From: Escherichia phage EP1
Strand: one strand, 5' to 3'
DNA: 64,000 nucleotides
Sequence record: OR892555.1
Below the pieces are notes generated by a model. The model did no database searches, had not been told where the DNA came from, and saw only the letters and a program-made list of their open reading frames with translations. A program made the position numbers and the translations under genes. Below, piece after piece: positions 22,250 through 63,682 of the stretch. The first letter of the stretch is position 1, and each line of letters begins with the position of its first letter.

Positions 22250-22275
22250 TTAAAAGGGGCTAAAAAGCCCCTATT
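22250..22275 (-). terminator. rho-independent terminator between the two fiber genes
   Basis: AGGGGCT-aaaa-AGCCCCT hairpin followed by U-run on the minus strand. Confidence 0.45.
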
Positions 22276-57678: not shown

Positions 57679-58146
57679 ATGAAACTTAAAGAAATCGTTC
57701 GTAAAGCAATGCTGGACAACTCCACTAAAGATGAGATGTACAAAGAAATCTGTGATAAGTTGAACTGTTCAAGACATGCTGCCAAGGTTCTTGTCGCAAG
57801 TTTTATATGGGAGTGTTCAGAGGCTTATATGAACTATACAGCTTTTGAGAGTTCTCACTTGATAGGCGACATAAAGGTTGGTACAGAGTTCAAAGAGCCT
57901 GAAATGAAACCTTCAGTGAAAGTAGGTAACCTTTATCAGATTAAAGATTTCCAGACTGCACAGATTGTTGCAAAAGGTGAAGTAGAAGCTGTGTACAATG
58001 ATGGTACATACCTCATTAAAATCTTTGAGTATGCTAAGTCATATGCTCACCTTTGTGGAATAAGATTTCTTGTGACGAAAGAAGATTTAGTTATGTCATC
58101 TGGTGATAAAGCTTATGCTGTACCACATTATGAAATTGTACGATGA
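57679..58146 (+). CDS. hypothetical protein (155 aa)
   Basis: ORF track. Confidence 0.4.
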   Translation: MKLKEIVRKAMLDNSTKDEMYKEICDKLNCSRHAAKVLVASFIWECSEAYMNYTAFESSHLIGDIKVGTEFKEPEMKPSVKVGNLYQIKDFQTAQIVAKGEVEAVYNDGTYLIKIFEYAKSYAHLCGIRFLVTKEDLVMSSGDKAYAVPHYEIVR

Positions 58147-58826
58147 AGAGTCTTATGGGACACCTTCGCAGGATGAATTGGACGAACTTGAAAGATACGG
58201 TTCTCCTTCGGAAGAAGAAAAAGATTCAATCTGATGAATGGTCAAAACTTACTAAGAAGTGTTTTCAGGATTTGATAGATATGGAAAAACAATTTGAGTT
58301 AGAGAGAAAGTACTTGGTACTGAGTTTGGAAGATATTGATAACTATCTTTCACCAGAATGCAGAGACCAGCTTCAACAAATTGTAATGTCACTGAGGCAT
58401 TCAAGAGAACTTGTAGATGGTAAAGAGCCACTTGAAGGTATCTTTGTTAAGAACTCTTATCCGTTCTATAAAGATACTTTGCAGAAACTTGAAATGTACG
58501 TTAAACAGCAGAACCGTAAAGAGTTCACTATGGTTTCTCTTGGTGGACAACAAATGCTTGTTATGGAGGATATCAATCCTAAACGAGTTAACAGAGGTGT
58601 TTGTATCAAGGTCACAGGTAAAGAAGAATTTGTTGATTATGACATACTCAGACATATTATAGATGGTTTGGGTGCTGTACTGAACATGAATGAATACCAT
58701 ATTAGTTCACACCCAATTAAGGGTGACCAGATAATGATTCAGGTAAGAGAACGTCATAATGGGTTCACACACTTCTTCCAGACTTCTAAAACTTCATTGC
58801 AAGCTATGCTTAGTGAAGTGATGTAA
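58143..58826 (+). CDS. hypothetical protein (227 aa)
   Basis: ORF track; last gene of the plus-strand block. Confidence 0.4.
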   Translation: MKSLMGHLRRMNWTNLKDTVLLRKKKKIQSDEWSKLTKKCFQDLIDMEKQFELERKYLVLSLEDIDNYLSPECRDQLQQIVMSLRHSRELVDGKEPLEGIFVKNSYPFYKDTLQKLEMYVKQQNRKEFTMVSLGGQQMLVMEDINPKRVNRGVCIKVTGKEEFVDYDILRHIIDGLGAVLNMNEYHISSHPIKGDQIMIQVRERHNGFTHFFQTSKTSLQAMLSEVM

Positions 58827-58833
58827 AACTCTA

Positions 58834-58882
58834 CAGCCCCTTAAAATGGATTCGATAGAATCTATCTCATAGGGGCTTTTTA
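58834..58882 (+). terminator. rho-independent terminator with large structured loop
   Basis: AGCCCCT (58834-58840) pairs with AGGGGCT (58870-58876) then TTTTT; loop holds GATTCGATAGAATCTATC. Confidence 0.5.
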
Positions 58883-60420
58883 TTGAGTAAAATAATTTTT
58901 ATAAAATTTGGGATTCACTACGTTCATCTTGGGTCACCATATCATGTGATAAAATATCTACCCCTCTTAACAGTCTACTTAATCTTACTCTCTATATAGT
59001 TATATAGTACTATATAGTATCTTAGTCTCTTAACAGTGAGTCTCTATAGCACTCTGTATAGCCCTTCTAAATAGCCCTCTATAAAGCCCTCTAATCAATC
59101 CTCTTCCAAACCTATACAATCCCTTAACCATCTCTTCATAGCTCCTTAGAAGCCCCTATACCCATCTTAATCTCTAGGTAAAAGATAGTACCCTCTATAG
59201 GGTGTTCACTAGGTTCTACTAACCCTCTATATAGACTGTTTTAGCTAACTAAACAGGTATTACCTTCTAAGGCTTATCCTACAAGGTCTAACACGGTACT
59301 AACAAGGTATCTTATAAGCCTGTATTTACCTGTTTTATACAGAATACTATATAGATATTTATGCAACTATTAAAATTTTTATAAAATAGAACTGTCAAGT
59401 CACTTTTTAGGGTCTTGAGAGCAACTCAAAAATATCTGTCTAGGGTGTATATCTGCTTGGTAGCCCTTAACAGCCTTGTAACATACCCTTTGCAAAATTT
59501 TAAAATATCATTAACAATTTCTTTACAACTCTATCAATCTCTTAACATCTCTTCAAAGGTCTTAACAGATTCTTAACAGGACTAACAAGGGTGTAACAAG
59601 TCTCTAACAAGTGCTACATAGACTTTACAGATTCTTAACAGATGACTAACAAGAGCTAACAAGTTAATTTTAAAGGGTTATTTTGTTAAGATAATTAACA
59701 AGTTCCTAACAAGGCTTTAAAGCTTTTAACATACTGTTAACATGGTCACTATCTCTTCTCTTATCGTTCCCTTAACTTCTTAGTGATTCTCTAAACATCC
59801 TCTTAAAAGCTCTCTATAGCTCTATACAGCCTCTTTTAAGCCCCTTGTAAGGTATCTATAGCCCAAGTAACTACAAAGGGCTTTATAGGGCTTTACAGAG
59901 GCTTTAAAGGGTATGCCAAGTTAGCTAACAAGAGTTTAACAAGGTCTTAACAATGATTTAACATACCCCTAACAAGGGTAACTATTCAGGAGTTGTTAAG
60001 AATTTGTTAAGAAAATGTTAAGGGGGCTAGCATTTACGTAACTTTTAAGCCACTTTTAAGCAACTTTATAGCCCCTATAACATACTTTTAAGACACTAAC
60101 AAGCCCTTTTTAGTAGTTCACAAGGTGACTAACGAGATGATAAAGCTTGATACCTTATAAGATTCTTTTAAGGCCATAGAAAGCTCTATAAAGGGCTTTT
60201 AAGAGTGGGTTAATATGATTGCTTAAGTTAGGTTGATAAGCTGTTATAGGGCTTTATAGAGCGTTTTAGAGGGTTGCCCTTCCCTTTGGGTTATGGGCTT
60301 ATATTTTAGGGAAAGAATAGTTGATTTGATAAGAGAATATAGAGTAAGCTATAGAGTTATTGTTCTAAATGTATGAGATAGATTCTATCGAATCTGTGAT
60401 ATGAGTCTGTATAGACGTAA
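58883..60420. repeat. ORF-free region of degenerate short repeats (CTAACAAG, CTTAACAG, CTCTATAG, GGCTTTATAG)
   Basis: No ORF of 60 aa or more in any frame across about 1.6 kb; stop-containing 8-10 bp motifs recur dozens of times. Confidence 0.55.
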
Positions 60421-60496
60421 AAAAGCCCCTATGCGATAGATTCTATGAAGGTAATTCATTACCTAAATCACTATCGAATCCATAGAAAGGGGCTGT
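60421..60496 (-). terminator. rho-independent terminator, mirror image of the 58834 terminator
   Basis: AGCCCCT (60424-60430) pairs with AGGGGCT (60488-60494); U-run on minus strand (plus-strand AAAA at 60421-60424); loop holds GATAGATTCTATG and CTATCGAATC. Confidence 0.45.
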
Positions 60497-60537
60497 TAAG
60501 GTATCTGGGGCTATTTTAGCCCCGTTGCGGCGTCTCG

Positions 60538-60786
60538 TTAGTTATGACCGTCCTTGTCATAGTAAAGAGAAATGATTTTATCGTTCCAATAGTGCCAATG
60601 ATTACCATCTTTCACCGCCTCTTGGATAGCTGCAATCCAAAAATCCGATTCAGGGTTATAATCCTTGACAATCTGGCTAACAAGGCTTTTCACCATATCA
60701 AAAGCACTATCTGTACTGATAATGTCAAATTTAACGTCCAGTGAGTAAAAACCATATTCGTTAACAGTTGCGCGGATAGTTGCCAT
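60538..60786 (-). CDS. hypothetical protein (82 aa)
   Basis: ORF track; preceded by conserved leader. Confidence 0.4.
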   Translation of the reverse strand: MATIRATVNEYGFYSLDVKFDIISTDSAFDMVKSLVSQIVKDYNPESDFWIAAIQEAVKDGNHWHYWNDKIISLYYDKDGHN

Positions 60787-60806
60787 TTTTGAACCTCCAG
60801 TTTAGG
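60787..60806 (-). promoter_or_regulatory. conserved leader CCTAAACTGGAG upstream of start codon (copy 1)
   Basis: Minus strand TTTCCTAAACTGGAGGTTCAAAAATG; upstream hairpin GGGGAGGG/CCTTCCCC. Confidence 0.5.
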
Positions 60807-60845
60807 AAAGTGGGGAAGGTCAATCCCTCCCCGTTGATTAGTAAT

Positions 60846-61109
60846 TTACTGCATATTGGCGTATGTTGCAAGCCTTTTTTCGTTGTATTTTGTCAGAATC
60901 TCACAAGACAAAACATCATATTTAGTAATGGCGTTGCTTTTGTCAAGGTCAAAAAAGCTAAACACTTTACCATCTTTGAATCCTACAACTTCATAAGACT
61001 CTTTGATGAGTTCACCGCTAAACATATCACTTTCGACACGGTGAAACAAGGATACATCTTCTTTATCAGTTGCAATCTGTAAAAGTGTGGTTAATTCTAC
61101 ATGTTCCAT
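60846..61109 (-). CDS. hypothetical protein (87 aa)
   Basis: ORF track; conserved leader. Confidence 0.4.
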   Translation of the reverse strand: MEHVELTTLLQIATDKEDVSLFHRVESDMFSGELIKESYEVVGFKDGKVFSFFDLDKSNAITKYDVLSCEILTKYNEKRLATYANMQ

Positions 61110-61131
61110 CTTGATTTCTCCAGTTTAGGAT
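61110..61131 (-). promoter_or_regulatory. conserved leader CCTAAACTGGAG (copy 2)
   Basis: Minus strand ATAATCCTAAACTGGAGAAATCAAGATG; preceded by hairpin GGGGAAG-aaatca-CTTCCCC (61135-61154). Confidence 0.5.
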
Positions 61132-61166
61132 TATGGGGAAGTGATTTCTTCCCCTTGATAGACACT

Positions 61167-61694
61167 TTAAAGATTCGCTATCGTTTCGTCAAGTGAATTT
61201 TCTAAGTTTTTTAAAGATTGTTCGTAAAGTCTAATCCCTCTAGTTAATGCCTCCCCCAACGTAATTTTAAATTTAGTTGTTGGATAGTCACTTGTAAAGA
61301 GATTTTCAACTTCATAGAGTGGGTGTTGTTGGTTACCCGTTCCCATAGCATACATCCCTGTATAGTGGATTGCAATAAAAAGATTATGAGACTTTATAGA
61401 GCGTTCATAGGCCATTTTGTAGCGGTTTAGCTCGTTTTTAGTCGCCTTGATAGCCATTTCATGAATCTCTGCGACGATAGCCATATAATCCGGCAGAATC
61501 ATTGCAACAGCTTTCATAAAGTTGTCAGCGGTCATAATTTTCTGATTTGGGCGATGGATGTAATACTTTTTATCTTCCCCTTTCGTGATGACTGCAAAAG
61601 TTTTATCTTTCAGGGTGAATTCAAAGGTATCTTTGACAGGTTTTTTCATTACATCTTTTGAGCGAATAGTGTTGATTGCTGTAAACTTGTTCAT
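61167..61694 (-). CDS. hypothetical protein (175 aa)
   Basis: ORF track; conserved leader. Confidence 0.4.
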   Translation of the reverse strand: MNKFTAINTIRSKDVMKKPVKDTFEFTLKDKTFAVITKGEDKKYYIHRPNQKIMTADNFMKAVAMILPDYMAIVAEIHEMAIKATKNELNRYKMAYERSIKSHNLFIAIHYTGMYAMGTGNQQHPLYEVENLFTSDYPTTKFKITLGEALTRGIRLYEQSLKNLENSLDETIANL

Positions 61695-61716
61695 CTTTGA
61701 TTCTCCAGTTTAGGAA
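61695..61716 (-). promoter_or_regulatory. conserved leader CCTAAACTGGAG (copy 3)
   Basis: Minus strand TACTTCCTAAACTGGAGAATCAAAGATG. Confidence 0.5.
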
Positions 61717-62238: not shown

Positions 62239-62260
62239 CTTTGAATCTCCAGTTTAGGAA
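62239..62260 (-). promoter_or_regulatory. conserved leader CCTAAACTGGAG (copy 4)
   Basis: Minus strand AGCTTTCCTAAACTGGAGATTCAAAGATG; upstream GCCCCAGATAAAGAG box shared with copy 6. Confidence 0.5.
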
Positions 62261-63172: not shown

Positions 63173-63193
63173 TTTGAATCTCCAGTTTAGGAA
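63173..63193 (-). promoter_or_regulatory. conserved leader CCTAAACTGGAG (copy 5)
   Basis: Minus strand CCACTTCCTAAACTGGAGATTCAAAATG. Confidence 0.5.
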
Positions 63194-63662: not shown

Positions 63663-63682
63663 TTTTGAATCTCCAGTTTAGG
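63663..63682 (-). promoter_or_regulatory. conserved leader CCTAAACTGGAG (copy 6)
   Basis: Minus strand CACTAACCTAAACTGGAGATTCAAAAATG; upstream GCCCCAGATAAAGAG box. Confidence 0.5.

Follow-up and report, generated by a model that had tools for sequence, protein, structure and literature searches.

Sister terminators with an optional loop insert probably face each other across the terminal-repeat region of a Felix O1-like phage

A 64,000-nucleotide stretch of DNA from Escherichia phage EP1 (sequence record OR892555.1; hereafter the window) contains a 22-bp motif whose two inverted copies bracket a non-coding region of about 1.5 kb. Such an arrangement raises the question of whether the motif is a signal in its own right, for instance a pair of protein binding sites, or a component of the terminator hairpins in which it lies. 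We consider it probable that two paralogous terminators face each other here across a terminal-repeat region, and that the motif is an optional insert in their loops.

The source phage of the window is Felix O1-like (Ounavirinae). A 3.5-kb query around the motif matched 256 phage records, nearly all of them Felix O1-like myoviruses of this subfamily, and the best match is Escherichia phage SUSP2 (88% identity, 87% query cover). An alignment-based locus search gave 21 loci and a single-protein locus search SUSP2 only; 17 terminal regions were aligned, and 38 sequences representing 34 distinct genomes were then surveyed. The motif lies in a gap (58827-60537) between two convergent genes:

58143..58826, + strand: left flanking gene, 227 aa, PHROG 4330 (unknown function), ending a + strand block that reads towards the terminus
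60538..60786, - strand: right flanking gene, 82 aa, PHROG 4559 (unknown function), ending a - strand block that reads towards the terminus

Orthologues of the left gene are annotated beside the gap in all relatives, the alignment holds 13 orthologues of the right gene, and the neighbours of both likewise belong to phage families of unknown function. The gap has no open reading frame of at least 60 aa in the ORF list. Tiny ORFs annotated there in P219 and I14.1 were not taken as genes; they fall within conserved repeat arrays. Nucleotide identity of the gap among relatives is 76-86%, 197 records cover at least 80% of its length, and its annotation in relatives consists of 'terminator' and small 'repeat_region' features. 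Searching 58000-61500 against Rfam at permissive thresholds gave no RNA family, the two matches being chance-level eukaryotic ones (a snoRNA and a microRNA precursor), and a promoter scan found no enrichment (14 against 11.8 expected).

The 22-mer GATTCGATAGAATCTATCTCAT occurs exactly twice in the 64 kb, at 58849-58870 (+) and 60373-60394 (-), and allowing up to three mismatches adds no further copy in the window (0 expected from 100 shuffles). With the flanking A/T included, the exact inverted repeat is 23 nt long (58849-58871 / 60372-60394). The preliminary description of this DNA was thus right about a mirrored 22-bp motif, with positions 1 nt too low. The 23-mer that it took as the mirrored unit is exact over the 22-mer, and its leading G has no mirror. 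The 64-kb search likewise bore out that the motif is confined to the gap region and not scattered over many unrelated positions. In a repeat search the motif pair grows to 43 nt at 81% (58829-58871 / 60372-60414). The same search matches the terminators with each other, once over 27 nt at 96% (58855-58881 / 60420-60446) and a second time over 26 nt at 88% (58833-58858 / 60471-60496). The core of the motif, GATTC-N4-GAATC, has dyad symmetry. Apart from the halves in the right terminator described below, the copies in the window are as follows:

58848..58871, + strand: motif copy in the loop of the predicted left terminator (site S1), hairpin AUGGAUUC-GAUA-GAAUCUAU, exact match
60372..60414, - strand: third motif copy (site S3), a decayed duplicate of the 5' half and loop of the terminator, with the 3' stem and T-run absent

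The segment 60372-60414 agrees with the left terminator at 39 positions and differs at 10, and the same position in relatives holds unrelated or partly related sequence.

The elements that carry the motif have the features of intrinsic terminators, as had been claimed for them from the outset along with their mirrored placement around the non-coding region:

58835..58882, + strand: predicted left Rho-independent terminator, 7-bp AGCCCCT/AGGGGCT stem, inner 8-bp hairpin, TTTTT at 58878-58882
60419..60494, - strand: predicted right Rho-independent terminator, common stem, motif halves at 60431-60442 and 60471-60481, TTTTTT at 60419-60424
60443..60470, - strand: nested second hairpin, 28 nt, AGGTAAT..ATTACCT, in the apex of the motif hairpin
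60507..60523, - strand: small conserved hairpin GGGGCUAAAAUAGCCCC, lying past the stop codon and ahead of the right terminator, -12.3 kcal/mol

Both elements build on the AGCCCCT/AGGGGCT stem, at 58835-58841/58871-58877 and 60424-60430/60488-60494, and the partial motif copies reported in the right hairpin are there, GATAGATTCTATG at 60435-60447 and CTATCGAATCC at 60471-60481. The left RNA fold has -21.5 kcal/mol (z = -4.98) and the right one -27.5 kcal/mol (z = -4.42), and none of 200 shuffles was as stable in either case. The left stem begins 9 nt past the stop codon of its gene (58826), and the right stem 44 nt past the other stop codon (60538), with the small hairpin in the interval (conservation 0.93 in the block 60502-60526). 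All sequence-level features of an intrinsic terminator are thus found in both elements: the stem, the U-run, the position downstream of a gene and the gene's own strand. Read on the same strand, the right terminator is identical to the left at 48 of 57 positions, with a single 28-nt gap. We are fairly confident that the two elements are paralogous Rho-independent terminators closing the two convergent gene blocks, and transcription would be expected to end at both hairpins. A simple terminator scan missed both, because it limits loops to 8 nt and the loops of both elements are longer.

Relatives point in the same direction. Orthologous positions, left and right, are annotated 'terminator' in Mordin, Moogle and AYO145A. 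In the 17 aligned genomes the left stem is AGCCCCT/AGGGGCT in five, AGCCCC/GGGGCT in three and AGCCTCC/GGGGGCT in nine; the hairpin is kept despite the sequence change, and the loops vary freely. The right stem is invariant among the aligned genomes and hence uninformative. Nowhere in the region is conservation lower than in the terminator loops (0.12-0.6).

What the terminators bracket had been missed in the preliminary description. Judged from the ends of related records, which begin and end inside it, the gap is a chromosome-terminus or concatemer-junction region with a direct terminal repeat. In MH571750 (vB_EcoM-Ro111lw) an exact 613-bp repeat stands at both ends, the first base of the record mapping to 60027 and the last to 59459; the same length was obtained for this phage with PhageTerm (PMC6454146). 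PP892526 has an exact 581-bp repeat at both ends, mapping to 59459 and 60027. OQ743992 opens at 59459, and CRP22, NBSal004 and NBEco004 open or close at 60027. Erwinia phage M7, from another genus, has an exact repeat of 444 bp, both boundaries of which fall 3 nt outside 59459/60027 in the alignment; similarity of its DNA to the window is confined to the surroundings of the left boundary, and the start of its repeat, TTAGCCACTTTTACA, aligns at the right boundary box. The window shows the repeat as one collapsed copy, and its position in the present phage was taken from homology with these records:

59460..60027, no strand: putative direct terminal repeat, about 569 bp, a single collapsed copy in the window

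Anchors were found in 36 of the 38 sequences; the repeat lengths that they give, 567-656 and low by about 2 nt, agree with the deposited or published lengths of 613, 581 and 608. The last of these, 608 bp, belongs to UAB_Phi87 and was determined with Bal31 digestion together with run-off sequencing (PMC4837284); the anchor-based estimate for that genome is near 614 bp. The UAB_Phi87 record (JN225449.1, 87,603 bp) was opened elsewhere and lacks the repeat; the comparison is by length only. For Pr103Blw the published terminal repeat is 581 bp. The motif copies in the window lie 345-590 bp outside the repeat boundaries. The possibility that the DNA between the inverted terminators flips was considered and set aside; the boundary boxes have the same orientation in all 36 aligned relatives.

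The terminal region has an architecture of its own, which is more interesting than the motif itself:

58883..59459, no strand: left unique non-coding arm with CTnTAwAG / CTATATAG motifs, conservation 0.8-0.98
59445..59473, + strand: left repeat boundary box, GTGTATATCTGCTTG followed by GTAGCCCTTAACAG, the boundary lying between 59459 and 59460, where the records MH571750, PP892526 and OQ743992 have ends
59467..60021, no strand: YTAACA / TAACAAG repeats, 19 on the + strand and then three inverted (59994, 60005 and 60016)
59683..59701, no strand: palindrome TTGTTAA-GATAA-TTAACAA (TTGTTAAGATAATTAACAA), invariant, inside the terminal repeat
60005..60042, - strand: right repeat boundary box, ACGTAAATGCTA followed by GCCCCCTTAACATTTTCTTAACA, mirroring the left box through TAGCCC..TTAACA, with record ends at 60027
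60028..60418, no strand: right unique non-coding arm with CTTTTAAG / CTTTATAG motifs, many of them spaced by 11 bp

The boundaries are nearly invariant in the 17 genomes, with CTGCTTG followed by GTAGCCCTTAACA on the left and, on the opposite strand, ATGCTA followed by GCCCCCTTAACA on the right; TAGCCC..TTAACA stands at 59461 (+) and 60029 (-). YTAACA occurs 24 times in the terminal repeat, the three inverted copies abutting the right boundary, and TAACAAG 12 times against 0.2 expected, always on the + strand. The spacing of the YTAACA/TAACAAG copies has a best period of 10.5 bp, the helical one (R = 0.82), which none of 2000 random placements reached. Many of the CTnTAwAG and CTTTTAAG motifs of the arms are likewise set at 11-bp spacing. 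A 25-nt block with the palindrome (59677-59701) is 100% conserved in the 17 genomes, and by 25-nt blocks the non-coding interior averages about 0.85 against about 0.65 in the flanking genes. The repeat arrays were also considered as a possible replication origin; GC skew tracks the direction of transcription only.

It is plausible, on these patterns of conservation, that the boundary boxes, the TTAACA arrays and the palindrome, and not the motif, are recognition sites for packaging or replication proteins. The mirrored boundary boxes are candidates for terminase cutting signals; in Felix O1 no small terminase subunit was identified (Felix O1 genome paper). What has already been reported for Felix O1-like phages is the terminal repeats, by length only. 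No description of the flanking terminator pair, the phased TTAACA arrays or the inverted boundary boxes was found in the literature searched, and the region is undescribed in the Felix O1 genome paper, the Bas63 essentiality preprint and several genome announcements.

Against this background the motif behaves differently. It is specific to the terminal region of the Ounavirinae, yet it is optional and shifts between sites. It is present in 82 of about 264 related records, with two copies in at most 9, so that about 69% of the records have none; the composite of motif and nested hairpin is found in 14. In the survey of 34 genomes, 15 have no copy, four combine a left copy with an inverted right copy, and five alternative sites are variably occupied. 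Outside this group, a search of 596 Gb of bacterial sequence with the motif 18-mer gave 16 single matches in unrelated bacteria, where simple arithmetic gives about 17 expected by chance. Viral contigs gave seven matches, six of them on contigs of 87-90 kb, the Felix O1-like size.

The left terminator of SUSP2, phiSUSP1 and CHB7 is a plain hairpin, AGCCCCTTTATTGGGGCTTTTT, with a 4-6-nt loop and -12.2 kcal/mol, and all Felixounavirus genomes have another plain one, AGCCTCC..GGGGGCT. The 25-nt left insert is restricted to the window, Mordin, Moogle, KPS64, P219, Michonne and one metagenomic contig. The right terminator is plain in most genomes, including Mordin, Moogle and Felix O1; it carries an insert in SUSP2, pinkbiff, Bas63, JLBYU32 and one contig, and the doubly nested form is seen at this terminator in the window only. 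Against the plain terminators of close relatives, the inserts are clean 22-28-nt indels, flanked by repeats of only 2-4 nt (TC, ATAG). Two further sites lie near 60373 and 60405, the module being more palindromic at the second. Six genomes have a copy 16 nt outside the left repeat boundary, and GGTAG..CTACC is a variant outside that boundary (three to six genomes) whose double change leaves an alternative pairing of 5 bp intact. With few exceptions the copies face the terminal repeat, those on the left being on the + strand and those on the right on the - strand. The preliminary description had proposed boundary elements or sites for a dimeric protein rather than simple terminators. As transcriptional boundaries of a special region the elements hold up; as a pair of protein sites they are largely unsupported, and so is the opposition to simple terminators, since the closest relatives have plain, motif-less terminators at the orthologous sites.

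We propose the following explanation. The two gene blocks read outward to the chromosome ends and would converge at the junction once the DNA is concatemeric or circularised. Each chromosome end in virion DNA would have a terminator at some distance from it, about 1.15 kb at one end and 0.96 kb at the other. In concatemers the two terminators would face each other, shielding the repeat and packaging region, as well as the gene block on the far side, from transcription, and so preventing antisense transcription of that block. This insulating role is what the position and orientation of the terminators suggest. The motif would be a 22-25-nt hairpin module (stem GGAUUC/GAAUC, 4-nt loop) within the terminator loop and no separate signal; it would lengthen the terminator stem and roughly double its predicted stability (-21.5 against -12.2 kcal/mol for the plain form), and at the apex of the right copy another hairpin would be nested. 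On this view the long-range inverted repeat would exist because two oppositely pointing terminators both carry the same optional module.

The module may have spread by recombination or gene conversion among similar hairpins. It is patchily distributed over three genera and identical over 31 nt across genera, where the surrounding DNA is only about 78% identical, and this combination suggests exchange by one of these routes. A half-motif, GGATTCGATAG, is conserved beside the right terminator in most genomes and could seed such exchange. The 31-nt identity, together with the orientation of the copies, could reflect a sequence-specific function no less than recent exchange. Because the copies face the repeat and the variant keeps an alternative pairing, some selection on the structure or the dyad symmetry of the motif, with a weak role at the RNA or DNA level, is conceivable.

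A rather less probable account, though one with a real chance of being correct, takes the motif and its composite as a miniature selfish or mutational palindromic module that spreads among hairpin loops by gene conversion, template switching or transposition-like insertion and is merely tolerated there. It is compatible with working terminators. The presence or absence of the insert at five orthologous sites as clean indels fits such a module, as do the hairpin-in-hairpin-in-hairpin structure, the placement of the composite in Moogle at a site other than that in the window, the patchiness over three genera and the half-motif GGATTCGATAG, which could seed conversion. However, a genome has at most about four copies, all within 1.7 kb, with none elsewhere in the 64 kb and none in bacterial genomes beyond chance. 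A clear target-site duplication is absent, and homologous recombination between mosaic phages could equally yield the patchiness. A more specific proposal, which we regard as unlikely, is that the module and its nested derivative are hairpin-seeking mini-insertions of the Ounavirinae terminus, copied in repeat-facing orientation into hairpin apices by a mechanism tied to the replication or processing of the ends. In carrier phages they might also modulate termination or end processing.

Less likely again is that the inverted copies are paired sites for a dimeric or bridging phage protein that organises the boundaries of the terminal region, for example in packaging. The dyad-symmetric core, the restriction of the motif to the terminal region and to the Ounavirinae, the orientation of the copies towards the repeat from both sides and their exact sequence across genera are what such sites would show. 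But most related records, including Felix O1 and AYO145A, do without the motif, and so do Ro111lw and I14.1, whose repeats are verified. Its five sites shift, a left copy with an inverted right one is found in only 4 of 34 genomes, and the invariant elements are elsewhere, in the boundary boxes, the TTAACA arrays and the palindrome at 59683-59701. An essential pair of packaging or boundary sites should be conserved with its machinery, and the motif is not; the protein-site pair is largely unsupported.

The processing of T7 concatemers uses pausing and hairpin intermediates. That the hairpin modules here take part in processing the concatemer, for instance as DNA hairpins from which the terminal repeat is primed for duplication, or by a pausing that ties transcription to packaging as at the T7 concatemer junction, is very improbable: the modules lie near the repeat, as close as 16 nt to its left boundary in the six genomes mentioned, and the T7 concatemer junction carries a class II terminator according to one abstract (10.64898/2026.02.12.705533), but most relatives, those with verified repeats among them, can dispense with the modules, and the copies in the window are hundreds of base pairs away from the boundaries.

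The reading as paralogous terminators with an optional insert can be set beside several known systems. Like intrinsic terminators in general, convergent pairs included, the two elements have a G+C stem and a U-tract, follow the last stop codon on the correct strand, and keep the left stem through sequence change in relatives, as expected of the type. Unlike the usual intrinsic terminators, they have unusually long loops (29 and 57 nt) with second and third nested hairpins, and unlike the usual convergent pairs they are sequence paralogues and not independent hairpins. The short exact terminal repeats of T7/SP6 and Felix O1 type are matched in that the gap holds the sequence duplicated at the record ends of relatives, and the boundary boxes of the Felix O1-type repeats (UAB_Phi87, Ro111lw and Pr103Blw, with 608, 613 and 581 bp) are conserved in the window. 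For a terminator at a concatemer junction, the class II terminator of T7 sets a precedent.

In Twort-like staphylococcal phages, 12-bp inverted repeats mark the borders of the long terminal repeats (PMC7596081). The boundary boxes resemble them as short inverted sequences at both borders of a redundant segment; the family and the sequence are different, the repeat is 7.6 kb there and 0.57 kb here, and the likeness concerns the boxes, not the 22-nt motif. With REP/BIME- or MITE-like repeats the motif shares the form of a short imperfect palindrome placed after genes, by or inside terminators, and variably present. It differs from them in having one to four copies in a single 1.7-kb region, with none in the remaining window or in host genomes; the many dispersed copies of a REP- or MITE-like element were not found, those in the window lying only within 58848-60481.

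The case is a cautionary one: a striking long-range inverted repeat is here best read as two sister terminators with a common optional loop insert. Its by-product is a map of the chromosome terminus for a group of phages in wide use for Salmonella and E. coli typing and biocontrol, in which chromosome ends are rarely annotated. The map offers probable repeat coordinates, candidate terminase signals and a 1.5-kb non-coding block more conserved than the neighbouring genes. It could tell annotators where to open such genomes and engineers which non-coding DNA to leave alone; the motif inserts are evidently dispensable parts for engineering. The stem common to the two terminators is not special. 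Stems of the GCCCC/GGGGC kind are widespread in hairpins of this phage, also at 22256, 52024, 60507, 62273 and 62570, and are its house style for hairpins.

Across the 17 genomes whose terminal regions were aligned, the non-coding DNA at 58930-60370 is better conserved than the protein-coding genes on both sides (~0.85 vs ~0.65), which implies that the DNA as such is under strong selection. Short open reading frames encoding "hypothetical proteins" of 30-45 aa have been annotated within the conserved repeat arrays of this region in some relatives. In phage P219, these lie at 582-680, 936-1028, and 2010-2114 (L018 numbering), and in vB_EcoM_I14.1 one lies at 1033-1170 (L007 numbering). The reading frames of both phages are probably over-calls.

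The inferred terminal repeat contains 24 YTAACA motifs between 59467 and 60021 with a phasing of ~10.5 bp. In the same interval, TAACAAG occurs 12 times, always on a single strand, and three inverted copies of YTAACA abut the right boundary of the repeat. Taken together, the phasing, the single-strand TAACAAG, and the inverted copies suggest a protein array on one helix face or, alternatively, curved DNA. Both boundaries also carry mirrored TAGCCC..TTAACA boxes, at 59445-59473 and 60005-60042. The individual elements in and beyond the repeat are as follows.

Sequence elements in the terminal region and the adjoining gene block
59683-59701: perfect palindrome, TTGTTAA-GATAA-TTAACAA
60069-60082, + strand: TAGCCCCTATAACA, a third box resembling the boundary boxes, 41 bp outside the right boundary
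60507-60523, - strand: GGGGCUAAAAUAGCCCC, conserved small hairpin that separates the right terminator from the stop codon of the 82-aa gene
60795-60806, 61118-61129, 61703-61714, 62247-62258, 63180-63191, and 63671-63682, all - strand: exact copies of CCTAAACTGGAG

The preliminary description had suggested that the long-range inverted repeat (58849-58871 and 60372-60394) provides binding sites for a dimeric protein or boundary elements. The palindrome at 59683-59701 is a better candidate for a dimeric-protein site, and the 25-nt block that holds it shows 100% identity across the 17 genomes. On the right side, the GGGGCUAAAAUAGCCCC hairpin and the right terminator form tandem hairpins at the end of the operon of the 82-aa gene.

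The six copies of CCTAAACTGGAG in the window compare with 0.3 expected. Each is directly followed by a start codon, and the genes concerned form the block adjoining the terminus. Equivalent 14-bp boxes in Citrobacter phage Mordin are located next to ribosome-binding sites and are labelled only "repeat_region". The box may be an extended Shine-Dalgarno sequence or a regulatory or processing box of the end-proximal genes.

vB_EcoM_I14.1 (PP892526.1) is classified as a Tequintavirus, yet has Felix O1-like ends and flanking genes. The 147-kb record of Staphylococcus phage SA1 (GU169904.1) contains a Felix O1-like copy of the terminal region at 135462-137053 and looks like a mixed assembly.
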